Shown here: positions 18,317-64,000 of the stretch, piece by piece
Numbering within the stretch: position 1 is the stretch's first letter
Layout of the letters: every line of letters begins with the position of its first letter
Source: Octopus sinensis
Lineage: Eukaryota
Length of the DNA stretch: 64,000 bases
NCBI RefSeq assembly: GCF_006345805.1
Contig: NC_043000.1
Location: forward strand, 73,470,001 to 73,534,000
Reading direction: 5' to 3'
Translations under genes and position numbers: made by a program
Notes under the pieces: generated by a model
The model's input: the letters and a program-made list of their open reading frames with translations, nothing else
Database searches by the model: none
Told to the model about the DNA's origin: nothing

Positions 18317-20232
18317 CATCATCATCATCATCATCATCATCGTTTAACGTCCATGCTAGCATGGGTTGGATGTTTTGACTGAGGACTGGTGAACCAGATG
18401 GCTGCACCAGGCTCCAATCTTGATCTGGCAGAGTTTCTACAGCTGGATGCCCTTCCTAACGCCAACCACTCTGAGAGTGTAGTGGGTGCTTTTACGTGCC
18501 ACCAGCACAAGGGCCAGTCATGCGGTACTGGGAACGAATACGCCCAAATGGTGTTTTTTTTTATGTGCCACCTGCACAGTGGCACAAATTCCAGTAAAGC
18601 GACACTGGTAACAATCACGCTTGAATGGTTCTTTTTACGTGCCACCGGCACGGACGCCAGTTAGCCAACGATCATGCTCAGATGGTGCTCTTAGTGCTCC
18701 ACTAGCATGGATGCCACACATCGAATTTGATTTCCATTTCACTTGCCTCAACAGGTCTTCACAAGCAGTGTCCAATGAAGGGAAGGTACGCATAAGTAGG
18801 CTGGTTACACCCCTGGCATAGACCACAAGGTTATGGTCTCATTTGGCTTGCCGGGTCTTCTCAAGCACAGCATATATCCAAAAGTCTCGGTCGCTAGTCA
18901 TTGCCTCAGTGAGGCCTAATGTTTGAAGGTCGTGCTTCACTACTTCATCCCAGGTCTTCCTGGGTCTACCTCTTCCCCAGGTTCCCTCAACCACTAGGGT
19001 GTGGGACTTTTTCACATGGCTATCCATATTCATTCTCGCCACATGACCATACCAGCGCAGTCATCTCTTTTGCACACCACATCTGATGCTTCTTAGGTCC
19101 AACTTTTCTCTCAAGGTACTTACACACTGTCGAGTATGCACAATGACATTACACATCCATCAGATCATACTGGCTTCATTCCTTGCGAGCTTCTGCATGT
19201 CCTCATAGTCACGGCCCATGTTTCACTGCTGTGTAGCATGGCTACACATGCGTCATACAGTCTACCTTTTACTCTGAGCAAGAGGCCCTTTGTCACCAGC
19301 AGAGGTAAGAGCCCTCTGAACTTTGCCCCGGCTACTCTTACTCTAGCTGCTACACTTTCAATACACCCTTCCCAGCTACTGACTTTGTCACCTAGGTAAT
19401 GGAAGCTATCAACTACTTCTAGTTTTTCTCTCTGGAATGTGATGGAAGTTGGTCTCTGCACATTTTCAGTGTTTATTGCTCCTGAGCATCTGCCACATAC
19501 AAAAACTATCTTCCCAGATAGCCTTCCTTTGATATTGCTGCACCTCTTATGTGTCCATAGCTTACACTGGGTACATCTTATAGAGTTTCTACCTATGCCT
19601 TTTCAACCGATTGAGCAGGGCCATCTACCTGAAGGTATTTGTGGTTTGCCTTCCTTCCTACTTATTAGAACTTTGGTTTTAGCTAGGTTGACTCTAAGGT
19701 CCTTTGATTCTAATCTTTGTTTCCACACCTGAAACTTCTCCTCTAGTTCTGATAGTGACTCAGCAATTAGAGCAAGATCATTAGCATCCTGTCTTGAATT
19801 CCTCTGTTATTGCCTGGAGGACTATGATAAATAGAAGGGGGCTGAGAACTGAACCTTGGTGGACCCCTACCTCCACCTGGAATTCTTCACTGTACTAGTT
19901 GCCAACCCACACCTTACTGACAGCGTTCCTGTACATTGCTTGCACAGCTCTCACTAACCATTCATCTATCCCTAGTTTCCTCATTGACCACCAGATAAGG
20001 GATCGGAAGACCCAGTCAAAGGCTTTCTCCATGTCAACAAAAGCCAGGTACAGAGGTTTATCTTTGGCTAGGTATTTCTCTTGCAGCTGTCTTACCAGAA
20101 ATATAGCATCAGTGGTGTTTTTTTACTGGCACGAACCCAAACTGCATCTCATCCAAACTGACTCTCTCCCTAATTAGTTGGGCTATGACCCTCTCCGTGA
20201 CCTTCATTACCTGATCTAACAACTTGATACCT
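18317..20232 (-). mobile_element. 5'-truncated RTE LINE with a complete 3' UTR and (GAT)n tail
   Basis: (CAT)n at 18317-18341 followed by the 3' UTR with GTGCCGGTGGCAC-type repeats. RT/C-terminal fragments KLEVVDSFHYLGD and GRGRPRKTWDEVVKHDL. Confidence 0.92.
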
Positions 20233-20632
20233 CATGAATGTGAATTTTTGTAGCACAATTTAACAAAAGGCTCTTAAATCTACTGCATAATTTTTGCCTC
20301 AAAGTGACTCTAATTACAGGTAATTGTCAACTAAATATAAAATTATTTTGATTTTGAAATAAACTCATACACATACATGAGTATGTGTATGAGGTTATTT
20401 TCTAGTTTCCTTCAAAGATGAATTTCAGTATTTCATTCTATTTTACTTTTATGCTACAGCAGCCTTATTAAAATTTAACTATCATTTAAATATTAGCTAA
20501 TAGCTCATTTTCTATGGTGATGTTGAAAAAAATCAAAATACACAGAAACATATATAATAATGATTTACAATACAAATAGATTAAGGTAAATTAGAATTGC
20601 AAGTAAATAAAAACAAGATAAATTTGATAAAT

Positions 20633-22530
20633 CATCATCATCATTTAATGTCCATTTTCCATGCTAGTATGGGTTGGATGGTTTGAAAGAAGCTGGCAAG
20701 CCAGAGAGCTGCACCAGGCTATTTTTTAGCATAGTTTCTATGGTCAAATGCCCTTCCTAATGCCAACCACTTTACAAAGTGTACTGGGTGCTTTTTACAT
20801 GGCACTGGCACAAGTGCTTTTTATATGGCATCAGCACCAGTGGGGTTGCCAAGTAACTTGCAAGACAAAGACCTCTTAGTTGAAAGAAGGAATGGAACCA
20901 AGAGGAGTGGTTGTGTGCCAGGCGAGAGTTTAGAGTATAATAAAGGGACAGAGATATTTGTCTCACTACAGTGGAGATACTTGGCTACTCCAGTAGGATA
21001 AAGAATGCGGGAGAATTAGAGAGAGAAATAGATGGCGTTGGAGGTGCCTACCTACTGAACAGTAGCAGGGGAGTATAAGTAGTACAAAGAGAATAGAGGG
21101 GGATGTTCCATAGGAGTGTGACGGGATAGGTTTAGAGATAGAAGACCTGACTAACAAGTGATGCTGAGGAAAATTGGTGAAACTGGGAGTGGGGTAAGGA
21201 AGACTGAGAGGGCATGGAGTGTGTGAATAGGCAAATGCGAGAGCGGAGCGGAGGGATGGGGCCTGCAGCTAGTGGAGGGGAGAGATGGGGCCTGCAGCAG
21301 GCTGGGAAGTTTTGACTGATGTCAGATAATGTGTGTGTAAGATGGGGCATGGCCATAAAGAAGATACATGCATGTGTGGGTAGCTATGATTTCACTTAAC
21401 TTGACATGTCTTCTCAAGCACAGCAAATCCCAGAAGTTTCACTCACTTTTTATCTCCTCTGTGAGGCTCAAAATCTGAAGATCATTTCTCACCTCTTTAT
21501 CCCTCTTCTTTCAGGGTCTACCCCTTCTACAGGTCCTCTCCACAAAAACTGACACTTCTTTGTGCAGCTGTCCTCATCCATATCTATCACATGACCATAC
21601 CAGCATAAGGTTCTCTTTTGCACACTACATCTGATGCCTCTTATACCCAATATTTCTCTTAAAACACTTATGCTTTGTCATACATACACACTGATATTGC
21701 ACATTTAAAAGAGTATGCTGGTTTCATTTCTTTCAAGCCTTCACATGTCTTCTGCAGTCACAGCCTGTGTTTCACTGCCATGTAGCATGGCTCTTCTTAC
21801 ACAGGCATCATACAATCAACCTTTCACTTTGAGTAAGAAGCCCTCTGTTACTAACTCATTCTTATTCTAGTAACTACTCTCTCAAAGCATCCCTTTCTTC
21901 TGTTAACTTGGTCACCTAGGTAACAGAGGCTATCTACTACTGCTAAGTATCTCCCTGGGCATTTAAGGAAGTCTATTTTCTGTACTTTCTTACTGTTTAT
22001 TGTGCCTACACATCTTCCACAGACATGGAATTTCTACATACACCTTTTCTACATATCAAGCTACATATCTACATATCAAGCTAGACCATCTCCCTGAAGG
22101 ATTTGGTCTTTGCTAAATTAACTATAAGGCACTTTCATTCTAGACCTGCTTCCACACCTGAGTTCTAAGATTATCAGTATAGAAGAGCAGAGGAGCTCCC
22201 AAGAGCAACCAGTTCCTCTGTTATGGGCTGGAAGACTATGATAAATAAGAGAGGACTGAGAACTAAGCCTTGGTGAACTCCTACCTGTACATGAAATTCA
22301 TTGCTAAACTCATTGCTGACTTACACCTTACTGACAATATCTCTGTTCATGGCTTGTACAGCTCTCACCAACCACTCATCTATCCATATATTTATAGACT
22401 TTGTATCTGTTTTGGCATGGTTTTTACACCTGGATGCCCTTCCTAATACCAACCACCCCACAAAGTAGACTGAGTGCTTTTTATGTGGCACCACACTGGC
22501 AGGGTCATCAAGTAAGTTGCAAAGCAAAGA
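20633..22530 (-). mobile_element. Older RTE LINE copy or copies, fragmented
   Basis: (CAT)n tail at 20633 and the same 3' UTR core. RT remnants include IDEWLVRAVQAMNRDIVSKV (22321-22390). A second tail fragment lies at ~22400-22530. Confidence 0.8.
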
Positions 22531-32110: not shown

Positions 32111-32671
32111 TGTTGTGTAGCAATTTATCACATAAATCATTATTAACTTCATACAGAATTTGTTTTTAGAATTTCTAAAATTTCTAATATCAGATTTTAG
32201 TTTAGCTTAAAAATGGTTGTAGTACTTACAAAATCTTATATTAGTTACTAAATCAAGGGGGTATACCTCAAAAGGAACTAAATCTTTTATCTAGGGTGGA
32301 TATTTATATGTCCTTAAATCATAATGTTCTGTGAAAGTAGATGTTAGTGTAACATCAAAAAAATAAAGCCTTCCATCTCATGAGGTCTTATACTTTCCCT
32401 AGAAGCATCCTAATCATCATCATCATCATCATTTAACGTCCGCTTTCCTAAGATATGAGTTATTCATTGCTGTAGGTATATTTTTTAAGGAGTAATCCAC
32501 GTAATATAAATCCATAATAGTGTGTATAAAATTTTTAGAATTCTTATAGTCACTCAACTTTACATAGTTATATGCCAAACAATGTGGAAATTGAATTTGC
32601 AGCAGAAAACAACATACAATTTTTACATTATTTATATTTGACGAATATTTGTCCTCATCTTGTTTGTTGTT

Positions 32672-32717
32672 AACACAATGTTTCGGTTGATATACCCTCC
32701 AGCCCTCATCAGGTGGT
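32672..32717 (-). ncRNA. Minimal type I hammerhead ribozyme motif (left arm)
   Basis: Minus strand: ACCAC-CTGATGA-G-GGCTG-GAGGGTATAT-CAACC-GAAA-CATT-GTGTT. Confidence 0.65.
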
Positions 32718-33044
32718 TTGGGGAAATTTTGAACCTGTGTTCTCATTCCTAAGGTATTCTTTGATGTTGTTGTTGTTATTATTATCATTATTATTATTAT
32801 TCAGGTCACTGCCTGGAATTGAACTCGGAATCTAGGAGTTAGTAACCCACGCTCTTAACCACTACACCATATGCCCGTGGCCCACGGACATATGGCATAG
32901 TGGTTAAGAGTGTGTGCTACTAACCTCAAGATACTGAGTTCAATTCCAGGCAGTGACCTGAATAATAATAATAATAATAATAACAACAACAACAACATCG
33001 AAAAATACCTCAGGAATGAGAACCCAGGTTTGAAATTTCACCAA

Positions 33045-33087
33045 GACACCTGATGAAGGCTGGAGGGTATATCAGCCGAAACGTGTT
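33045..33087 (+). ncRNA. Minimal type I hammerhead ribozyme motif (right arm)
   Basis: GACAC-CTGATGA-A-GGCTG-GAGGGTATAT-CAGCC-GAAAC-GTGTT. Perfect 5-bp stem II. It is 3 nt shorter than the left arm at the cleavage triplet, so it is probably inactive. Confidence 0.65.
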
Positions 33088-33176
33088 AACAACAAACAAG
33101 ATGAGGACAAATATCTGTCAAATGTAAATAATATAAAAATTGTACATAATTCTTCATCTCTTAAATATAGAACAGG

Positions 33177-33755
33177 CAAAGACCTGTTGAGGCAAGTGAA
33201 ATCGAAATCAAAATCAAATTCAAAGACTGGCATCCATGCTAGCGGGGTGCAAAGAGTACCATAGGAGTGTGATCGTTGACAGAGCAGCTAACCGGCTTCC
33301 GTACCAGTGGCATATAAAAGGCACCATCTGTGTGTGATTGTTACCGGTGTCACATTACTGGCACTTGAGCCCTGTGCTAGTAGGGTGCTATGAGCACATT
33401 CGAGTGTGATCGTTGCCAGAGCGGCTAACTGGCCTCTGTGCCGGTGGCACGTAAAAGGCATCACTCGAGCGTGATCGTTACCACCATCACCTTACTGGCA
33501 CCTGTGCCGGTGGCATGTGTAAAAAGATTTGAGCGAGGTCATTGCCAGTACCACCTGACTGGCTCCCGTGCTGGTGGCATGTAAAAGCACCCATTACACT
33601 CTCGGAGTGGTTGGTGTTAGGAAGGGCATCCAGCTGTAAAAACTCTGCCAGATCAAGATTGAAGCCTGGTGCAGCCATCTGGTTCGCCAGCCCTCAGTCA
33701 AATCATCCATCCCATGCTAGCATGGAAAGTGGACGTTAAACGATGATGATGATGA
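33177..33755 (+). mobile_element. RTE 3' UTR fragment with (GAT)n tail
   Basis: Same repeated GTGCCGGTGGCAC(G/A)T units as 18317-18760 and 57650-58110. Ends GGACGTTAAACGATGATGATG. Confidence 0.85.
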
Positions 33756-36529: not shown

Positions 36530-39500
36530 CTACACACCCCCTAGGCAGAGGTAATGTTATACAATAATGAAAATAACAAAAATGTATACATCATAAAATG
36601 TCAAACAATAGGAACAATATCACAGTTCAAATGTAATAAATGTTTATTAAATTCTTGGGCCAATGCACATGTCTACCACTTTTGGTAGTCAGAGTTTGTG
36701 AAGTTGTGTGTAAAGGATGCATTTGTAATGCTGTGTGTGTGTGTTGTCTGTAGTGGGGTTCGAAATAGTTTTTTCAATGTGAGCCCTTTTTAGTCTATCA
36801 ACAGAAATAGTGTCTTTACTCCCGTTAATGTCTAAAGTGAAAACTTTATCTATACAAGAAAGCACATGAAAGGGTCCTGAATACGGTGCTGTTAAAGGAT
36901 TTTAACAGCATCGTTATGAACAAAAACATGAGTCCAAGAAGAATAGTCCTCAGGCAAATATGTTTTAATGTTTTGTTTTCTGGTATTCATATGTGGTAAC
37001 TTTAACATATAATCACGCAAGTATTCAACAAAATTTGTGGGTTTGCTGGAACAGCCATCTGACCAGGCAGCGTCAATGAAGAACCATAAAGTAATTCTGC
37101 TGAAGAATATCCAATATCTTCTTTGATAGAAGAGCAGAGACCCAAGAGAACAATAGGAAGAAATTCAATCCATCGAGATGAATCAGCAGAAGCACACAAC
37201 GCAGCTTTAAGCTTTCGATCTTACTGTTCGAAGCTGGGTGGTAACTAGTGGAATGGATGTGTTTACTTCCTAAAATCTTGGTTAGTTCCTGGAAAAGTTT
37301 AGCTTCAAATTGATGTCCGTGATCTATTGTTATTTTTACAGGTGTTCTGAAATGAGAAATCCATCCTGTGACTATAGCTTGTGCCACAGTTTGAGAAGAG
37401 ATATCTGTGAATGGAATAACTTCTAGCCAGCTGAAAAAACGATCAATACAAGTTAATGAAAACGTGTAGCCCTGACTCGCAGGCCAAGGTCCTACTATAT
37501 CAACATGTATGTACTGGAATCATGCATCTGGGGTGGAGAAAGTACCTAACAGTGCACGAATATGTTTATGTACCTTGGATCTTTGACAATCGACACAGGT
37601 ACGGGTCCAGTTAGCTATGTCTTGATGCCTGTTCAACCAAACAAAACGAGCTGAAATAAGCTTCAGTGTTGCTGTTATACCTGGATGTGAAATATTGTGT
37701 AGTCCTGAGAAAACGATATGGCGATGCTTTTCAGGAACTAAAGGGTGAAGTTTACCAGAAGAAAAATTGCAAAAGATATGTTTGTTTGATGTCGCAACAG
37801 GAAAAAATTGGAGGTCAAAAGGAACTAGTTCTGGTTGTTGTATATTATTCAAATCAATGGATGGTTGATCTTCTGGCATTTCATCCAAGTTAATTTCTGC
37901 AGTTGAAAATAACGTGTTAACAGGTAAACAGGATAAAGTATCAGCAGCAATGTTCTCAGAACCTGGAATATATCAGATATCACTCGTGAATTGTGAAATG
38001 TAATCCAAATGTCGAATGTCTCTTGGAGAAAATTTATCTGGCTTGCAGAATGATAACGGCTTATGGTCTGTAAATATTGCAAAGTTTCTCCCTTCCAAAA
38101 TGTGTTGGAAGTGTTTAACTGAGGGGTAAATAGCTAACAGTTCATGATTGAATGCACTATATTTAGTTTCAGCTGGTTTTAACTGCTTAGAGAAAAACAC
38201 TAGAGGTTGCCATTTGCCATGGTGGAGTTGTTGAATGACTGCACTGACACCAATTTCAGACGCGTCAACTACAAGAGAAATTTTTGTATCAGGAATGGGG
38301 TGAGCTAACATGGAGACACAAGAGTTTCTGTTTAACATCAAAGTGATCTTTTCTGTTCTCTTCTTGCAGTTTTGCAGTAATTTGTTGAGAAGGTATAATG
38401 TTTCAGCACAATAAGGTATAAAACATCAATAGAAATTAGTTAATCCAAGAAATTGTCTGAGCTGTTTTAATGAAACAGGAACTGGAATTTTTATGATAGA
38501 TTCAACTTTTTCTGGAAAAGGCCTAATTCCATCCTTATCAATAGTGTGTCCAAGGAAAGTGAAAGAAAGCACACCCAAAATACTTTTGGTAGCATTGATA
38601 TGAATTTTGTATTGAGAAAGCCTTTCGAAAAGTTGCTTCAAATAAATGTCATGTTCTTTCTTGGAAGAACTAGTGATGAGAAGATTGTCAATATAGGCAT
38701 AGACGAAATCTAATCCATGTATTACATCATCAATGAAACGTTGAAAAGTACTAGTGATGTTCCTTAACCCAAAGAGCATGGTAAGAAATTCAAATTACCT
38801 GAATGGATTTGTAAGAGTCATTTTTGGAATATCATTTGGGTTTATTAGAATCTGATGGTATGCTTGTATCAAATCTATTTTTGAGAAAATAATGCAATCA
38901 TGCAGAGAAGATGCAAAATCTTGAATATGTGGTATAGGATACCTATCTGGAATGGTAATAGTGTTGTGTCATCTATAGTCACCAGTAGGTCTACAATCAC
39001 CAGATTTCTTTTTCACTAAATGGAGTGGTGATGACCAGTTACTCTTTGAAGGATGAATTATTCCAAGCTGGAGCATGTGGCTAAACTCTGCTTTAGCAGC
39101 TTTGAGATTTTCAGTTGGTAAACGTCTAGGACACAAGAAAACAGGAGATCCATTGGTGGTTATATGATGAGTATGTGTTGAAGCATTGACATTGAAAATT
39201 AAATTTGTTAATTCAGGAAAGGATTGAAGCAAGGCTTGATATTTGTCTGGTTGATCTGCAATAAAATATAATGGGCTAACAGAAGTAGGACTGAAATATC
39301 TTCCTAAAGCATATAACTGTGTACTGCTATCGATAAGTCTCTTTCTTTTCACTAATAGTGAAAAATGGTGGAGAAAATCAGCTCCTAAAATTGGGTGAGG
39401 AAGGTAAGCAATGATGAAAACCCACTACTGGAAATTTCATTTAAGATTCAGATCCAGTGTGAGTGAAATCTCACTAAAAGTTTTAATGGGAGTGCTGTTG

Positions 39501-45685: not shown

Positions 45686-45808
45686 ATAGGAGAAGGAAAG
45701 ATCCAGAGGAAAAAAATCGCCAACGGTACACACGCGGTCACATTTTGAATGACATATACATATATATATATACATCTACATATATATATATGCATATATA
45801 TATATATA

Positions 45809-45855
<47 letters not shown>

Positions 45856-45866
45856 ATATATATGTA

Positions 45867-48800
45867 TCCTTAAATCCTTAAAAATGTTTTAGCCCGAAGG
45901 CCGCGGCCATGCTGGTGCACCACCGCTGAACGAGCTACACTAATATGTGAATCCACCTCTGATACATGGCACTTGGTCAATAAGGGAGTTCGATGCCGCT
46001 GCCCGCATCTGTGTCTCCTGTCGTGAGGTAGGTTCATCTGGGACCCCCGATAAGAAACCCACATCCACACCATGCAAGTCTCTCAGGCATTTAGGGAGGA
46101 TGTTAAAGAGCTGTGGTCCTCTGAAACCCAACCTGTTGCAGTATCTGGACCTGTATTTTGATGGTGATGTTGGAATCTTTGGCACCATGCAGTGGCGCCC
46201 CGTTCTGCGGTTGGGGTAACTTTGAATGCCAAAGTTTGGGACAAGACCCTCCAGGATTTTCCAGATGTATATCACCCCATATCTCTCCCGCCTTCACTCT
46301 AGGGAGAAGAGGTTTAATACTTTCAGTCTTTCCCAGTAGCTGATATTTTGCATTGAGACGATCTTCTTTGTGTAGCTTCTCTGAATTGCTTCGAGTTCTG
46401 CTGTTAGTTTTATATTGTGTGGTGACCATAGTTGAGAGCAGTAGTCCAAGCGACTGAGGACGAAAGTTTTCCAGAGGACCATCAGTGTCTCCTCTCTTGT
46501 TCTGAAAGTTCGGGGAATCCATCCAGCTAGCCGTCTGCATTTTATCACCAGATTAGTAATATGCACTTGGAAAGATACATCATTGCTCATGTCAATGCCC
46601 AGGTCACGCACTGATTTTGACTCAGGGATTGCAATTCTTCCTGGGCCAGTGTATCCAGTCTGCATGTCGTTTACCTTTGTGTGCCGGTAGCGCAAGGCCT
46701 GGAACTTACCTGCATTAAACTGCATGTTTTTGTCCTCAGCCAACCTGTATATTGTATCCAACTCCTGTTGCAGATGTGCAATATTTCCAGGGTTTTGTAT
46801 TGTGTGGGAGACTTTTGTGTCATCTGCATAGCTAGCAAGGGTGGCCATCTTAGCAACTAAGGGCATGTCTGAAAGGGCCACTATGAACAGCAGTGGCCCC
46901 AATACAGTGACCTGTGGAACACCGCTTGTTATTTGTGTTTCCTTGGAGGTGGCTCCATTGGTCAGAGCTGCCTGTCTTCTATCTTTTAGGAAGTTGCGGA
47001 GCCACTCTCCAAGTTTTCCGCCTATGCCGAGACCACGCAGTTTGTGACAAATGGTCGACTTCATCAAAGGCTTTTGCAAAGTCGAGATATATCACATCCA
47101 TATTTGAGCCATTTAGTAGCTGTTTTAACACCCAGTCATAGTGTTGCAGAAGCTGTGTTAGACAGCTTCTACCTGGTCGAAATCCATGCTGGGTGTCAGT
47201 CAGCAAGTCATTTTCTTCAAGGAACATGATTAGTTTCTTGCGGACTATTCGTTCCATGACTTTGCTGATGTGTGAGGTCAGAGAGATGGCCTATAATTTT
47301 TAGCATCTGCTCTGTTACCTCCCTTATGGATAGGGCATATTACCCCCTCTTTCAATTTGACTGGGAGCTTACCACTTGCAAGAAAGCTCTGAAAAAGAAG
47401 CTGTAGCGGTTTTGCAAGGGCTTGTTTGCACGATTTGAGAAGGATCGCTGGAAATCCATCAGGTCCAGCAGCTGAGTTTGTGTCAATCTCATCTATGGCC
47501 AGTGTGATATCATCATCTTCAATGTTGATGTACTCAATTTTGGCATCTTTGGCCGCTGGTAAAGTGGCAAAGAATTCTTCTGGTTTGTTTACTTGCCTGT
47601 GTCCTAGAGGTGTAGTGAACACACTTTGGAACTGTTTGTTCAGTATTTCACTTATCCTCGTGGGATTTCCTGTGAGACAGCCATTTTTTTGGAAGAGAGG
47701 TCCTATTCTCTGGTGCACTGTGGCTGTCTCTTTGGCAAACGTAAAGAAAGCTTTAGGGTTTGACTTTATATTTTCTATTACCCAAGCTTCTTTATCTGCT
47801 CTCTCTTTTTCATGAGACTGATGCACTTTTCTCAATTTCCATTAGCATTCTCTCGAGCCGAGACTTCTCACCACTTTTGGTGTGCTTGCTCAGGCGGTTC
47901 GCAATCCTTGTCCGTCTTCTCATAAGAACCTTCCTTTCTCTAGGGATCCTGTTTTTGTTTTTGTGTGTGCTGGCCCTGCACACTGGGACATATTTTTCAC
48001 ATATGGCTTGTATTATGGACATGAAGTGTTTGTGTTTCATGTTAATGTCCGGTGTGGAGAGACATTTAGGCCAATCCTGTTTGAGGATCTCTTTCTCGAT
48101 CAACTTCCAATTTGCTTTATGAAAGTTTAAGTTGGAGAGATTGTGGATGCTTCGTATAGGCTGTGTGTCTGCGGGGGCTTTTGGTCCATGCATAGACAGC
48201 TCTATTATGTTGCGATCCGAGATTGTTATCGGCATCACTTAAACATTATGGATAATATCCATATCGTTTGTGAAGCAGAGATCCAATATATTATCTGCCC
48301 TCGTTGATTGCAGCACTATTTGCTCCATGAAAGAGGCATTTGTGAGATGGAGCAGAGACTCCACCTGTGCCTGCTGATGGTGTGTCATCCCTGGGAGCAT
48401 CTGCCCCCCAGGCCATTCCACATTGGGGAAGTTAAAGATACCCATGAAGAATACACCGTTGTGTTGTTCCAGGTTGGTGAGAACTTCTATTTTTGTTAGG
48501 CAATCATCACACATGCCTGAGTGATTTGGGGAATCTGGTGGGCGATATGTAGTACATATGACGATATTCAGTTGTCTTATGTGTACAATTTGAGTGTCAC
48601 ACACTGAGTTTGAATATGACAGCAAGACCCGGGGCGTGAGGTCATCTCGGATGTACATTGCAACTCCACCATGAATCCTCCCTTTTCTGTCTGAGCGTAT
48701 GACTGCATATTGCGGTATGTGTATTTCTGCATCCCCTATATCGGGTCCAAGATGCGTTTCTGTGAGTGCCATGCATATAGCTTGATTGCATGCCACAAGG

Positions 48801-51290
48801 TCTCTCAGGAATGAGATTTTCCTTTTACAGTTGCCGCGCAGCAGCCCTCCTACGTTCAGTAGAAATATTTTTGTGGTGTGTGTGTTGGTGTCTGTGGTGG
48901 TAGTTCCAGCTTTGTGTTTGTAGCCAGGTCAGCTGCTGAAATATTTTTTGTGCCATGCACAAAAAAGATTGCTGTTCAGCTGCTGCCCTTTTCACATCTG
49001 GGTGAAACTGGCCATTTGTGGGGCTACCGCGCGCTACATCCGCATATCGTCTTTCAGGAGTGGTCAGTGTGCCATTTTTCCTTCTTTTATATTTTTCTTT
49101 ATCTTTTTGTTCTTCCCGAGGGGGGGATTTTTGTCTTATGTCCATGCGGTTTTGGCAGGGCTTCTGATGTGCAAAACGACAGTTTGCACCTTCGACGCCA
49201 TGCCAGCAGTCTCCCTTCAGGTAGAATTTGCAGATGTTTCTGCTTTTGCCCTTATAGTTCTTGCTGGGGTTCTTCTGTTTTTTCTGAACAGTGTTTGTTT
49301 TAGTTTTCTTGTTTTCCGTCAATTTTAGGGTGCTTTCCTTTTTTGCGGCCATCTTTGGTCTTCAGTTGTGTTGGGAGCTGGACATGTGCCATTGTTTCCC
49401 TTTGTTGTAGGGTTCTCGGTTGTGTCTTTTGTTGGGTCCTGGATGTTTTCTCCATCCTTTTGGTCTTGGTCTTCACTGGTGCAGTCACCTCCTAGGATGA
49501 TGTCCAGAGTGTCCATGTGTGGCCTGATTAGAGCGTACGAACGGAGGAATTCTCGTTTCTTTCGCTCTATCTGGGCGGTGGTCCTCGTGAAATCATTGCT
49601 CTTTAGCGCCGCTGCAATGATATTGTTTGGCGAGTCGCCCTCGGAAATCTTCCAGGGCCGGACGAACAATTGCAACTCCCTCGCAGACCAGTTCCTTGAT
49701 ATTTTCGCCTGAGATACAGATACAGTGAGAGTGAAGTATAGGAACAGAGAGAGAAGGAAAGATAAGATGGTTGACCTGAGAGGGAGAGGAGAGAAGAGAA
49801 AAGCTCGTGGCAGATCAGACAGGGGGATGGATAAAGAGAGAGACAAGGGGATTGACCTGAGAGAAGAGAGAAAGAATGGCAGGTCATCAGGGGGAGAGTG
49901 AGCGGGATAGAAGTGTGATAGAGAGAAAGTAAAGGGACAGGGAGGAAAAGAGAGACAAGGAGATGGACCTTATGGGGAGCAGGGAGAAGAAAGGCAGAGA
50001 GAGGGCGAGATAGAGGTACCAGAGAGTGAATTAAAGAGACAGAGAGATGAAAAAGAGACAAGGGGTGAACCTTAGCGGGAGCAGGGAGAGGAAAGGTAGG
50101 AAGAAAAAGAGGAGAGGGAAAGAGGGGGCGGGATAGAGGTGAAAGAGAGTGTAGTAAAGGGACAGGGAGGGTGGGGTAGAGAAAGAAATAAGGGGATAGA
50201 AGGAGGAAAAGAGAGAAAGGGGTTTGACCTGAGAAAGACTGGAGAGAAGAGAAGCACAGAGAGGGAGAGAGTAACAGAGAGAGAGAGGGAGAGAGAGAGA
50301 CAAAAAGAGAGAGGGCGGGATAGAATTACAAAAGAGAATTAGTGAAGTAGAGGAACAGAGGGAGGTGAGATGTGAGAAAGTTGATTTGAGAGAGGGCGGG
50401 GGAGATGCAGAGAGAGAAACGATGGCAGAGAGAGGGAGAGAGAGAGAGAGCGGAATAGAGGGTCTGATGGAGGGAGAGACAGATAAGGAGGAGAGAATTG
50501 TAAGAAAGAGATAGAAAGAGTAAGGCAGGTTACATAGATAGTCAGGATTGAGAGAAGAAAACACACTATCACGGACGAATTTATATACAAACAGACGCGC
50601 GTGTAAAAATAAAAATAACGTAAGTTTTTTTTAAAATCTATAATCGCGATTATATCAATGGATTATTAGGCGATCTGAGAACCGTAAGATCGTCGATTAT
50701 TAACAATAATAAATAATTTTTTTTCTTACCTTCTGGTTGAGAGAACACTTACCTTCACTCTGTTTTAGAAGAAAGAAAGCTATAAAAGACAGACCTTCGA
50801 TATTCCCGTATTCTTTACTTGCATTTTGTAAACAAAAGAACAGAATAGAGTTCCGATGTTCGTAGATGCAATATTGGTTTGTTTTTATGTTTTGATCCGC
50901 TTGCAAATTTAATATTTGATATCAGGAGGTAGCTTTTCAGAGGTTTTCAAAACACGTGCATATACTACACCAAAAGCGAAAATATTCTTCTCAAAATACA
51001 GTGTCTTGTCGTTGCTTCACAGACAAATTTCACTTCGATATCAGGAAGTTGCACACGTGGCTTTAACACATGTGCCCGGCTGTTCGCGAGGCATGTTTTA
51101 GTTGTATATACTACATCAAAAGCGAAAATATTCTTCTCAAATACAGTGTCTTGTCGTACTCTCACTTATATTTGCTTTACAGACAAAATTCACTTCTGAT
51201 AACATCGATCTCTTGAAGGTTTTAAAAAATTTTAGGAGAGCTATATTACACTCGATTTGTTAGTTCGGCGCCATCTTGGTTTTTTAATTT
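45867..51290 (-). mobile_element. Near-full-length CR1-group LINE (ORF1 ~49708-48825; ORF2 EN-RT ~48800-45940), frameshifted
   Basis: Endonuclease ICMALTETHL..RSDRKGRIHGGVAMY..NILDLCFTN; RT QHGFRPGRSCLTQLL, YLDFAKAFD, GVPQ.TVLGP, YADDTK; C-terminal YWERLKVLNLFSLE. 3' tail of AAGGATTT-type repeats at 45867-45880. The 5' boundary is tentative (YY1-like motif at 51267-51279). Confidence 0.9.
49715..50560. repeat. Long GA-rich (minus-strand CT-rich) low-complexity tract
   Basis: About 850 bp of purine-rich sequence with recurring TTGACCTGAGA units. Confidence 0.85.
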
Positions 51291-56654: not shown

Positions 56655-58110
56655 TCATAGCAGAATCACTACCGGAACTAGAAAAGAAATTTCGGGTGTG
56701 GAAGCAAGGGTTAGAATCAAAGGGCCTTAGAGTAAATGTAGCAAAGACCAAAGTTATAGTAAGCAGAAAGGCGAACTCAGCACACACTCCCTCGGGCAGG
56801 TGGCCCTGCTCGATCTGTAGGAAAAGTGTAGGTAGAAACTCCATAAGATGTACCCAGTGTAAGCTATGGACGCATAAGAGTTGCAGCAACATCAAAGGGA
56901 AATTAACTGATAAGATAGCTTTCATGTGCGGCAGATGCACAGGGACAATAGACACCACAGACACTCAGAAAACAGATTCCATCACACTCCAGGGGGAGAA
57001 ACTAGAAGTAGTTGATTGTTTCCGCTACCTGGTTGACCAAGTTAGTAATGGAGGTGGATGCTCAGAGAGTGTCACCACTAGAATACGAATAGCCTGGGCA
57101 AAGTTTAGAAAGCTCCTACCCTTACTGGCTACAAAGGATCTCTCGCTCAGAGTGAAAGGTAGATTGTATGATCATGTGTGCGAACTGCCATGCTTCACGG
57201 TAGTGAAACATGGGCTGTGACTGCAGAGGACTTGCGTAGACTTGAAAGAAATGAAGCTAACATGATCCGCTGGATGTGTAATGTCAGTGTGCGCGCACGA
57301 CAGAGTGTAAGCACCCTGAGAGAAATGCTGGACATAAGAAGCATCAGATGTGGTGTGCAAGAGCGACGCTTGCGATGGTATGGTCATGTACTGCGGATGG
57401 ATGAGGAGAGATGTGTGAAGAAGTGCCGCTCCCAAATAGTTGAAGGTATCAGGGGGAGAGGTAGACCCAGGAAGACATGGGATGAGATAGTCAAGCATGA
57501 CCTCCGAGCGTTGGGCCTCACAGAGGCAATGGCGAAGGACCGAGATCTCTGGAGATATGCTGTGACTGCGAAGACCCGGGATGCTTCCTGCCCCAGTTCC
57601 GCATAGCCCCTGCCCATTCAAAGTACCTTGGATTTCAGAACAACCCGCTGTGCTTGAGGAGACCTGTTGAGTCAAGTACATGAACATCGAAATAAATATC
57701 AATGGAAATAGTAGTTGTGATATCTGTGCCGGTGGCACATATAAAGCACCATCCGAACGTGGCCGATGCCAGCACCACCTCGACTGGCTTCTGTGCCAGT
57801 GACACGTAAAAAGCAGCATCCGAACGTGGCCGATGCCAGCGCCGCCTTGACTGGTTTCCGTGCCGGTGGCACGTTAAAAGCACCAACCGATCGTGGCCGC
57901 TGCCAAACTTCCCTGGCACCTGTGCCGGTGGCACGTAAAAAGCACCCACTACAATCGCGAAGTGGTTAGTGTTAGGAAAAGCATCCAGCTGTAGAAACAC
58001 TGCCAGATCAGACTGGAGCCTGGTGCAGCCTCCTGGCTTTCCAAAGCCCGGTCGAACCGTCCAACCTGTGCTAGCGCAGAAAACGGACGTTAAACGATGA
58101 TGATGATGAT
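56655..58110 (+). mobile_element. Relatively young 5'-truncated RTE LINE with 3' UTR repeats and (GAT)n tail
   Basis: ORFs 56624-57220 and 57178-57606 (IAESLPELEKKF...GRGRPRKTWDEIVKHDL) with one frameshift. Tail GGACGTTAAACGATGATGATG at 58085-58110. Confidence 0.93.
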
Positions 58111-58236
58111 TATATATATATATATATATAATATATATATATATATATAATATATATATTATATGCATATATATAATAAATGTTGTGTCTGAGGAGAGTC
58201 ATTTTCTTTTTGTGCCTCACCGGTAAAATCTCCACT

Positions 58237-58700
58237 TAATTTATCTCTATAAGTACACGCCTCGAAGAAAGCCAACACAAATTTCTAAAAAAATTCCGTT
58301 ATTACCACATCGGACCCGATTTCAGAGTTAATTCATAAGAACCTTCTCTTAATCGGTGATAAATGCGGCAAAGAAATAAATGAAATACTTATACCCATGG
58401 AAGAAGCAAACACTAAGTCATGAGCACAATTAAATACCCCAAATATATCCAAAATAGAAATTCTCCCGCACACCGCGAGACACGTGCGATTCAAACTGAA
58501 AACTTTTAATGAGTGAGAGAGTCCGGAAGTGAACACTATTAAATTTAAGTATTTCATTTATTCCTTTACCGCATTTATCACTGATGAAGAGAAGGTTCTT
58601 ATGAATTAACTCTGAAATCGGGTCCGATATGGTAATAATGGATTTTCTAAAGAAATTTCTGTTGGCTTTCGTCGAGACACGTACTTATAGTGATAAATTA
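58237..58700. repeat. ~155-bp inverted repeat pair containing a hammerhead motif
   Basis: 58237-58391 vs 58546-58700. The right arm has TATCA-CTGATGA-AGAG...CTCT-GAAA-TCGG-GTC-CGATA (58576-58629). Confidence 0.8.
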
Positions 58701-60487: not shown

Positions 60488-61418
60488 AGTAGACAAGAGT
60501 TGTTTTGGCATTTATACATTTAGGCAGGTTTAAATGGGTGGTGGTGGGGGACTTTTTTGGGGGTAGGCATGGCACAAAACTGTCATTATTAGGGGAGTGG
60601 TCAAAGGAATCGGTGGTAAAGTAGATAAAAGAATAAATAAAAGAATAAAAAAATAAAAAAAAAAAAAATATAAATAGAAAAATAGAGTTTTAGGTAAGTG
60701 GGGAGACTCTCACTTGTACATCTACATATATATATATACACATATACACATACACACACCCGCATATTCACATATATCTATACATATACATACATACCCA
60801 CATATACATGCATATATATATACATACGTACACATACATATACATATATATATATACATATATATACATATATATACACATACCCATGTACGTACACACA
60901 GATACACATATACATACATATACATACATATATGTATACCCACTCGCACATATATATACAAATGCATATACATGCACACACATACACACACATTTTTATT
61001 CTCTTATTTTAATTTTATTATTACTACTTTTGTTTATATCTTTATTTTTATCTTGACCGGTCAGCCTGTCTCAAGGGATATCTAAAGATTCCGTTTATCT
61101 ATCTACTTACTGATACGAACGCAAGCACTCACTCACGCCCACACACTCACACGTACACACACGCGCACGAGTTATATTCATACACGCCTACATCTACATA
61201 CATTCACGTATATTCATATACACGCATACACATACATACCTCAACACACCCACAGAAGACTAGTCCATACATATACACTAATTAATATATATACACATAT
61301 ACATATACACATACATACACATACATACATATACATACACATATATATATATATATACAATATATTCATAACATATACATACACATATACATTCATACAT
61401 ATATACACATACACACAT

Positions 61419-61490
<72 letters not shown>

Positions 61491-61494
<4 letters not shown>

Positions 61495-64000
61495 CCTTAA
61501 ATCCTAAAAATGTTTTAGCCCGAAGGCCGCGGCCATGCTGGGGCACCACCGCTGAATGAGCTACACTAGTTTGTGAATCCACCTCTGATACGTGGCACTG
61601 ATCAACAAGGGAGTTCGATGCTGCTGCCCGCATCCGTGTCTCCTGTCGTGAGGTAGGTTCATCTGGGACTCCCAACAAGAAGAGATCCAGTTTAGTTTTA
61701 AAGAAACCCACATCCACACCATGCAAGTCTCTCAGGCATTTAGGGAGGATGTTAAAGAGCTGTGGTCCTCTGAAACCCAAGCTGTTGCAGTATCTGGACC
61801 TGTATTTGATGGTGATGTTGGAATCCTTGGCACCACGCAGCGGCGCCCCGTTCTGCGGGTGGAGTAACTTTGAATGCCAAAGTTTGGGACAAGACCCTCC
61901 AGGATTTTCCAGATGTATATCACTGCATATCTCTCCCGCCTCCGCTCCAGGGAGAAGAGGTTTAATACCTTCAGTCTTTCCCAGTAGCTGACATTTGCAT
62001 TGAGACGATTTTCTTTGTGTAGCTTCTCTGAGTTGCTTCGAGTTCTGCTGTTTGTTTTATATTGTGTGGTGACCAAAGTTGGGAGCAGTAGTCCAAGCGG
62101 CTGAGGACAAATGTTTTCCATAGGACCATCAGTGTCTCCTTCTCTCTTGTTCTGAAAGTTCGGAGAATCCATCCAGCTAGCCGTCTGCATTTTATTACCA
62201 GATTAGCAATATGCATTTGGAAAGATGCATCATTGCTCATGTCAATGCCCAGGTCACGCACTGATTTTGACTCAGGGATTGCAATTCTTCCTGGGCCAGT
62301 GTATCCAGTCTTCACGTCATTTACCTTTGTGTGCCAGTAGCGCAGGGCCTGGAACTTACCTGCATTAAACTGCATGTTTTTGTCCTCAGCCCACCTGTAT
62401 ATTGTGTCCAGCTCATGTTGCAGATGCACAATATTTTCAGGGTTTTGTATTGCGTGGGAGACTTTTGTGTCATCTGCATAGCTAGCAAGGGTGGTCATCG
62501 TAGCAACTGAAGGCATGTCTGAAAGGGCCACTATGAACATCAGTGGCCCCAAGACAGTGCCCTGTGGGACACCGCTTGTTATTTGCGTTTCCCTGGAGAT
62601 GGCTCCATTGCTCACAACTGCCTGTTTCTGTCTTTTAGGAAGTTGTGCAGCCACTCTCCAAGTTTCCCGCCTATGCCGAGACCACGCAGTTTGTGACAGA
62701 TCATACCATGGTCGACTTTATCAAAGCTTTTGCAAAGTCAAGATATATTACATCCACATTTGAGCCATTTAGTAGCTGTTTCAACACCCAGTCATAGTGT
62801 TGCAGGAGCTGTGTTAGGCAGCCTCTACCTGGCCGAAATCCATGCTGGGTGTCAGACAGTAAGTCCATTTTCTTCAAGGAACATGATTAGGTTCTTACGG
62901 ACTATTCGTTCCATGACTTTGCTGATGTGTGAGGTCAGAGAGATAGGCCTATAATTTTAGCATCTGCTCTGCTACCTCCCTTATGGATAGGGCATATTAC
63001 CCCCTCTTTCAGTTTGACTGGGAGCTTACCACTTGCAAGAAAGCTCTGAAAAAGAAGCTGTAGTAGCGATTTTGCAAGGGCTCGTTTGCATGATTTGAGA
63101 AGGATCGCTGGGAATCCATCAGGTCCAGCAGCTGAGTTTGTGTCAATCTCATCAATGGCTAGTGTGATATCATCTTCTTCGATGTTGATGTACTCAATTT
63201 GTGTCTCTTTGGCCGCTGGTAAAGTGGCAAAGAATTCTTCTGGGTTGTTGTTTACTTGCCTGTGTCCTAGAGGTGTAGTGAACACACTTGGAACTGTTCG
63301 TCAGTATTTCACTTATCCTCGTGGGATTTCCTGTGAGAGAGCCATCTTTTTGGAAGAGAGGTCCTATTCTCTGGTGCACTGTGGCTGTCTCTTTGGCAAA
63401 CTTAAAGAAAGCTTTAGGGTTTGATTTTATATTTTCTATTACCCAAGCTTCTTTATCTGCTCTTCCTTTTCATGGGACTGATGTAGACTTTTCTCAGTTT
63501 CCATTAGCATTCTTTCGAGCCGACACTTCTCACCACTTTTGGTGTGCTTGCTCAGGCGGTTTGCAATCCTTGTCCGTCGTCTCATAAGAATCCTCCTTCT
63601 CTAGGGATCCTGTTTTTGTTTTTGTGTGTGCTGGCCCTGCACATTGGGACATATTTGTCACATATGGCTTGTATTATGGACATGAAGTGTTTGTGTTTCA
63701 TGTTTATGTCCGGTGTGGAGAGACATTCAGGCCAATCCTGTTGAGGATCTCTTTCTCAATCGACTTCCAGTTGGCTTTATGAAAGTTTAAGTTGGAGAGA
63801 TGGTGGGTGCTTCGTATAGGCTGTGTGTCTGCGGGGGCTTTTGTTCCATACATAGACAGCTCTATTATGTTGTGATCCGAGATCATTGTCGGCATCACAT
63901 TAACATTATGGATAATATCCATATTGTTTGTGAAGCAGAGATCCAGTATATTATCTGCCCTTGTTGGTTGCAGAATATTTGCTCCATGAAAGAGGTATTT
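61491..64000 (-). mobile_element. Second copy of the same CR1-group LINE (ORF2 and 3' end), running off the window
   Basis: Collinear and highly similar to 45867-48340 (GVPQGTVLGP, YADDTK, same 3' UTR and AAGGATTT tail). Flanked by a long (TA)n. Confidence 0.93.

Follow-up and report, generated by a model that had tools for sequence, protein, structure and literature searches.

What kind of mobile element leaves two tRNA-headed, ribozyme-bearing arms pointing away from a common centre? The question is raised by a palindrome in a 64,000-nucleotide stretch of the Octopus sinensis genome (contig NC_043000.1, positions 73,470,001 to 73,534,000; hereafter, the window). The original prediction, made from the letters of the window, described a ~530-bp inverted repeat centred at about 32880, with A and B boxes and an (AAT)n(AAC)n linker in each arm, and all of this holds: the repeat occupies 32615–33144 with the centre at 32880/32881, both boxes are present in each arm at exact tRNA spacing, and the linker is seen in the sequence of the arms. 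The arms are 85–94% complementary in ungapped pieces, with 88.3% identity over 266 nt by BLASTN; no further copies of the arm unit were found by BLASTN inside the 64-kb window. The arms had been expected to end in a hammerhead, and this expectation failed, as both run 60–90 nt past it, with the right arm ending at about 33173, not 33144. The repeated unit is ~295 bp long, and each arm is 7–8% off the family majority sequence, in line with the suggestion that the copy is old. Private changes are common to both arms; a 3-nt deletion is found in one of them.

The palindrome consists of two decayed copies, joined head to head, of a terminal repeat that belongs to a very abundant Penelope-like element (PLE). 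According to the alignment to the family majority, the right arm (32881–33173, plus strand) is a complete pseudo-LTR (pLTR), unit positions 1–296, with a long 3′ end, or tail, and the left arm (32615–32880, minus strand) is an inverted pLTR copy, unit positions 2–267, with a short end devoid of the tail. At the head-to-head junction (32867–32895), each arm begins no more than 1 nt from the 5′ end of the unit. In the right arm, the tRNA-like head lies at 32886–32958 (plus strand), with the A box at 32893–32903 (TGGCGTAGTGG in the majority) and the B box at 32938–32947 (CpG-decayed GTTCAATTCC; GTTCGATTCC in the majority), and is followed by the (AAT)n(AAC)n microsatellite linker at 32961–32997. 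In the left arm, the head lies at 32804–32876 on the minus strand, with the A box at 32869–32859 and the B box at 32824–32815.

The assignment to PLEs comes from the genomic surroundings of other copies. A search of the 2.72-Gb assembly with one arm yielded 2,863 candidates, so the sequence is not single-copy. Five of the first 30 loci (L002, L012, L013, L018, L021) have upstream sequence in common, and in four of these five the translation corresponds to the C-terminal region of a GIY-YIG-type endonuclease (YSIPCSCG...EH...DH). Searching the genome with the endonuclease part gave 2,918 candidates; 39 loci were fetched, and in 38 of these 39 endonuclease-anchored loci the unit stands directly behind the end of the endonuclease ORF. 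Near-full-length copies have the order of unit 3′ part, in-frame reverse transcriptase (RT)–endonuclease ORF, and second unit, and the unit is seen at both ORF ends, as a pLTR, in L255, L256, L257, L259, L262, and L042. The majority ORF, built from 62 body pieces, is 838 aa long and has no internal stop; it starts at unit position 136 (the corresponding ATG lies at 33016–33018 on the plus strand of the window), and its frame crosses the hammerhead. The unit is the pLTR and the N-terminal coding start of an autonomous PLE with RT and GIY-YIG domains. The predicted link to PLEs is hence upheld, and the suggested search for an autonomous PLE with a matching terminal repeat was successful beyond the 3′ part, as the whole unit, head included, is that repeat.

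Within the ORF, Pfam RVT_1 matches a natural fragment; no Pfam match was obtained for the endonuclease piece of L012, and the GIY-YIG domain was recognised from its motifs and from labels on relatives. The closest database protein (P0001) is 52% identical and has a homologous hammerhead-coded N-terminus (PD.G...PKRCVNN). No extra Cys linker between RT and endonuclease was seen in the translation. Exact 24-mers from the tail (3′ part), the head, and the ORF end occur in the genome 9,889, 3,221, and 803 times, respectively; rough estimates, in thousands, are 31–44 tail-bearing copies, 9–13 copies with the head, and 2.5–3.5 with the ORF end. The copies are ~8% from the majority, with heavy CpG decay, and the family is old and apparently inactive. 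One near-full-length insertion, together with its flanks, was met four times at 97–98% identity (L042, L047, L048, L049 at G000:C1, C9724, C9459, C8464), reflecting either a segmental duplication or unmerged haplotigs.

The ribozyme part of the unit was predicted to be a minimal type I hammerhead with a GUU cleavage site, a description that fits the family majority sequence and only partly this locus. The majority motif reads GACAC CUGAUGA A GGCUG-loop-CAGCC GAAAC GUU GUGUU, and its 32-nt form has 2,132 exact matches in the genome versus none for the reversed control. It fits the minimal type I in having the CUGANGA/GAAA core, an extra nucleotide before stem II, G10.1–C11.1, a palindromic 15.2–16.2, short stem I, and an NUH triplet. 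At the locus, the motif with its CTGATGA...GAAA cores is present in both arms (33050–33081, plus strand; 32712–32681, minus strand), but neither arm fits this definition in full and both ribozymes are broken. The right-arm hammerhead (33045–33087, plus strand) lacks the three nucleotides GUU at the cleavage site, so that GAAAC abuts GUGUU and no cleavage triplet is left, and the left-arm one (32672–32717, minus strand) reads AUU due to CpG decay of G16.2 (G to A), while its stem I is broken (AACCAC) and its stem II contains a mismatch; both are predicted to be inactive. Across seven related PLE loci and three family copies, the core is invariant and compensatory changes are seen in eight out of ten stem pairs, contrary to the possibility, raised along with the prediction, that core conservation and stem covariation might be lacking. 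The covariation score exceeds all or nearly all of 500 shuffles, bearing in mind that kinship of sequences inflates such scores. Minimal type I hammerheads of metazoan PLEs are described in the available text of PMC4209133 as poorly active, and in vitro only as dimers, and that text states that evidence of in vivo cleavage by PLE hammerheads is lacking.

The right-arm deletion recurs throughout the family: its form has 286 exact genome matches, compared with 2,132 for the intact motif, and in loci not selected on the hammerhead, 19 out of 254 copies carry it. At 99 ORF sites of matched geometry, six deletions were counted per 4,015 copy-sites, that is, the rate at the cleavage site is ~50 times higher. 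Some short deletion touches positions 203–207 in ~30 of the 254 copies, versus 0–2 at positions 195–201, and the deletion sizes at the cut site are mixed (2, 3, 5 nt, and longer). In palindromes, whose loci were partly chosen for the deletion, it affects one arm only in 25 pairs and both arms in five. The N7 subfamily marker agrees between arms in 51 out of 60 pairs, and the deletion occurs with either state of N7. Copies with the deletion have diverged as much as intact ones, with no linked marker across all loci. The deletion as a subfamily marker is unsupported, with the caveat that in the unbiased set it is linked to G to A at position 186 (9/31 vs. 15/211), a link that does not extend to all loci.

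On these sequence comparisons, we give about even odds that the 3-nt deletion may be a scar of ribozyme cleavage in vivo. The chances seem just as balanced for an origin unrelated to cleavage, be it a DNA-level or polymerase slippage hot spot by stem II, repair of an endonuclease cut in the pLTR, or an in-frame variant of a few source copies. The deletion is indeed in frame, the position 186 linkage is nominally there, and 5′ truncations do not pile up at the cleavage site, where 4 out of 80 ends fall at positions 204–209, near background (sample L361–L440, in which automatic end calls near the head were unreliable and were left out). Moreover, in the available part of PMC11167929 on the PAc element of Anolis, the PAc endonuclease is reported to cut its own pLTR DNA, and no hammerhead-cut RNA ends were seen in RNA-seq. 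What such an origin has to accommodate is the ~50-fold excess over sites of the same geometry, the contrast between 203–207 and 195–201, the mixed sizes, and the occurrence on both N7 backgrounds with discordance within palindromes.

We now turn to the head, which bears on how the RNA of the element began. In the majority sequence, both boxes are intact and have exact tRNA spacing. Among 11 tRNA genes of eight anticodon types from the same genome, the majority head best matches tRNA-Arg(TCT), with 51 out of 73 positions identical and z = 7.6 against 300 shuffles; tRNA-Thr as the source scored lower. Derivation from another SINE of the genome was rejected, as eight other A/B-box heads in ~1 Mb of loci are clearly different. 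The cloverleaf is degenerate, including the acceptor and T stems. Neither the window region nor any of 20 family copies matched the Rfam tRNA or Hammerhead_1 models, and ARAGORN called no tRNA in the window and 12 family loci and made only spurious relaxed calls on the majority sequence. Among relatives, none of the 17 hammerhead motifs in 80 related metagenome loci has a tRNA head upstream, and Rfam scans of nine relatives returned only hairpin-type chance matches. The single A/B pair found among relatives, a tRNA-like piece in L284, was discarded as unlinked.

The positions of the 5′ ends were scored in the first 90 head-pattern matches on contig C1, reduced to 89 by removing L191, the second arm of the L190 palindrome. 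Forty copies have an inverted partner at the head, confirming that the head-to-head form recurs, another 26 are solo copies, and the remaining 23 extend into the ORF. In 66 out of 89, the copy starts at −8 to +7 of the unit start, with the mode at position 6, which is tRNA +1; ends downstream of position 7 are invisible in this sample because the anchor pattern begins there. The copy-end rate at the head is ~8% per nt, compared with 0.3% per nt in the upstream ORF, that is, ~27 times the background truncation, and at unit positions 121–200 the truncation rate is low, similar to the ORF background. The full-length copies L255 and L256, the only two that reach the head, begin at positions 4 and 6, respectively. 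In the L361–L440 sample, approximately 14 out of 80 copies end 5′ in a long (AAT)n tract, due either to insertion into, or truncation at, a microsatellite or to tract expansion beyond the 280 bases fetched.

From pLTR to pLTR, the 2,974-nt sense strand has no TTTT (T≥4 run; P0 0.005–0.03 under three nulls), and such runs number 1.9 per kb in 19 stretches of related PLEs whose T content is similar. The lack of T runs is nevertheless a weak argument: runs of G≥4 are likewise absent from the sense strand of the family consensus, and 3 out of 32 related PLE stretches are T4-free, among them L290 and L315, which lack a tRNA head and have T-rich pLTRs. Since the tRNA-like piece stands at the pLTR start, where most copies begin, transcription of the element was likely driven by a tRNA-type (Pol III) promoter. 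Taken together, these sequence features suggest Pol III transcription of the autonomous PLE, which would also yield SINE-like short copies. Our main reading, to which we assign a probability of roughly 60%, is that the palindrome is one old head-to-head pLTR insertion of an autonomous PLE, with RNA synthesis likely starting at the tRNA-like head, from what is probably a Pol III promoter.

The same ends could arise in an ordinary PLE pLTR where the tRNA-like piece is a captured passenger, transcription depends on Pol II or on read-through, and the 5′ ends result from an RNase P cut at +1 or from RT stalling or folding back at a hairpin. We consider this rather unlikely. The 5′-end mode exactly at tRNA +1 is what RNase P would produce, the present-day RNA looks passive (see below), a −14 kcal/mol hairpin spans the ORF-end/head junction, and ~14 junctions read as fold-back around GCCC-NN-GGGC. 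However, RNase P requires acceptor and T stems, and these are degenerate, whereas both boxes are intact; stalling at the hairpin would be expected to leave cDNA ends near position 15, not 1–7; and fold-back leaves unexplained the 26 solo copies and the many pairs with a randomly truncated partner, all of which start at the head.

Still less probable is the model of the original prediction, an independent non-autonomous Pol III-transcribed SINE with a ribozyme and a borrowed PLE end. Head-starting copies do outnumber ORF-linked ones by ~3:1 and are slightly less diverged (0.048–0.049 vs. 0.067), so short copies may have kept amplifying in trans, and tRNA-derived, hammerhead-bearing SINE-like elements exist in schistosomes, as described in the accessible part of PMC2770079. 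Of the features of a tRNA-derived SINE as defined in SINEBase, the head with internal A and B boxes is present, albeit below the ARAGORN and Rfam thresholds, and a distinct non-autonomous family with its own body and simple-repeat tail is not seen. The head belongs to the autonomous element itself (38 out of 39 loci), the 3′ half of the unit encoding its N-terminus, and this is where the prediction of an independent SINE breaks down. In addition, there is no poly(A) or simple-repeat 3′ tail, and the ends follow the PLE tail rule. No position differs between head-starting and ORF-linked copies at p < 0.05, and both subfamily markers occur in both classes; with no diagnostic base separating them, the short copies do not form a separate SINE lineage. 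Nor does the family look like non-LTR retrozymes, which form head-to-tail tandems, as none of the 90 head-anchored loci is tandem; a few tandem pairs (L138, L142) turned up in a separate comparison.

Returning to the reading as a head-to-head PLE insertion, the geometry of inverted pairs is informative on how the two arms were made. All 28 scorable inverted pairs (of 40) have one long end (295–299) and one short end (253–275), and the window copy obeys the same rule, its right arm being long (to ~33173) and its left arm short. An adjacent inverted 5′ copy and a 30–40 bp tail at one end are general PLE features in the available text of Craig 2021 (PMC8557442), and in that of Frangieh 2024 (PMC11167929) the tail is tied to two RT start sites and a protein dimer is predicted. 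The long and short ends in 28 out of 28 pairs, and arms that differ at the deletion, fit an origin of PLE inverted repeats from two separately primed cDNAs. In L256, L261, L137, L155, L187, and L249, head fold-backs of ~25–30 nt lie between the main copy and a farther inverted piece, which suggests brief self-priming before the joining of the second cDNA.

A possible course of events would be as follows. In any pLTR copy, the A and B boxes would direct Pol III to make a short RNA of head, hammerhead, and tail; starting in a full-length copy, the RNA could extend across the T4-free ORF. The PLE protein, bound to the ORF-start region, would cut AT-rich DNA, and the two ends of the break would each prime one cDNA, with synthesis starting at the two PLE initiation sites. 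Synthesis of either cDNA would stop at the head, where the RNA template ends 5′, and the two products would then be joined head to head, with joining perhaps aided by a short self-complementary sequence at the head. Cleavage by the hammerhead would require a dimer or the assistance of a protein, and RT crossing of the ribozyme cut by a 2-nt GU microhomology could produce the 3-nt deletion of the right arm. The proposition in its widest form, that an autonomous coding PLE captured a tRNA-Arg-derived promoter and was transcribed by Pol III from end to end, making each solo pLTR a built-in SINE, and that the deletion hot spot records in vivo hammerhead cleavage across thousands of copies, is a tentative one, and we would sooner doubt than accept it as a whole.

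Transcript data come from three raw RNA runs of one study. The reads fall equally on both strands, are mostly 85–95% identical, and mirror the copy number; no pile-up of read starts or ends was found in these runs, and the 3-nt deletion is present in ~5% of reads. The present RNA looks like passive read-through of old copies and is neutral as to Pol III use. Given read-through transcription of the locus itself, a dsRNA hairpin is possible, as predicted from the palindrome. In the RNA reads (L258:400–1600, X21–X23), A>G and T>C mismatches slightly exceed G>A and C>T; many divergent copies confound this comparison, which gives no evidence of editing.

Much of this element is of an already known kind, namely, a PLE pLTR with a minimal hammerhead and 5′ inversion. 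The available texts on canonical endonuclease-positive PLEs of the Penelope/Poseidon type, e.g., PAc of Anolis (PMC11167929, PMC8557442, PMC4209133), describe the same single ORF with RT and C-terminal GIY-YIG and the same CCHH-type residues, a pLTR with a minimal hammerhead overlapping the ORF start (as in PAc, PMC11167929), and 5′ truncation, an adjacent inverted copy, and a 30–40 bp tail at one end only (PMC8557442). Unlike them, the octopus pLTR starts with a tRNA-spaced A/B-box head that marks the dominant 5′ end. The assignment of the octopus element to Penelope/Poseidon is based on domain order, not on a tree.

Other systems share one or another part of this architecture. Sm-alpha and Sj-alpha of Schistosoma are likewise tRNA-derived, hammerhead-bearing, high-copy short retroelements (PMC2770079, available part), but they are non-autonomous, SINE-like, and have canonical hammerheads (PMC4209133, available part), whereas in octopus the head and a minimal hammerhead overlap the ORF of the autonomous element whose terminal repeat they make up. 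Non-LTR retrozymes, tied to PLE pLTRs in the accessible portion of bioRxiv 10.64898/2026.07.22.740005, are similar in being short non-coding pLTR-related derivatives with type I hammerheads (PMC7229834; bioRxiv 10.64898/2026.07.22.740005); however, they are head-to-tail tandems giving circular RNA, while the octopus copies are mostly solo or head-to-head, and those portions of the two sources report no tRNA head. Cassandra and Helenus/Ajax also have a Pol III-type RNA sequence within the terminal repeat (PMC10886601, available part), but are non-autonomous LTR elements, and the name Penelope does not appear in the paper.

The literature searches turned up no pLTR with a tRNA head, no PLE driven by Pol III, and no deletion scar reported at the hammerheads of PLEs. 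The tRNA-headed pLTR and the deletion hot spot at the PLE cleavage site both look new; it is possible that repeat libraries already contain the family, under whatever name. The available text of SINEBase (PMC3531059) assigns the transcription of LINEs and LTR elements to Pol II and reserves Pol III for non-autonomous SINEs. If true, a coding PLE driven by a tRNA head would blur this line and present one route of SINE birth inside its own partner element, and a hot spot of deletions at the ribozyme cut, which can be scored in tens of thousands of copies, would make in vivo cleavage testable from genomes alone. Copies of a tRNA-headed pLTR could easily be classified as SINEs by repeat pipelines.

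Several other elements were seen in the window. The right arm adjoins the 3′ end of another repeat (33179–33755), which ends in (GAT)n, recurs at 18324–18759, 20631–20817, and 57723–58140, and has longer copies with PHD-like pieces; it looks like a LINE 3′ end, which we take to be of the RTE type. Two LINE copies, 92% identical and with RVT_1 and endonuclease matches, lie at 45752–48341 and 61383–64000, and a CCCH zinc-finger-like ORF is found at 48828–49361. An integrase core (rve) fragment at 37073–37519 on the minus strand is one of a series of ORF pieces on that strand that probably represent a decayed LTR retrotransposon. Another inverted pair, unrelated to the first, occupies 58237–58391 and 58546–58700, with arms 90% identical; it contains a hammerhead-like core at 58581–58617 (CTGATGA, stem II, GAAA, then TCGGGTC), shows no tRNA head, and is probably the pLTR of another PLE family.
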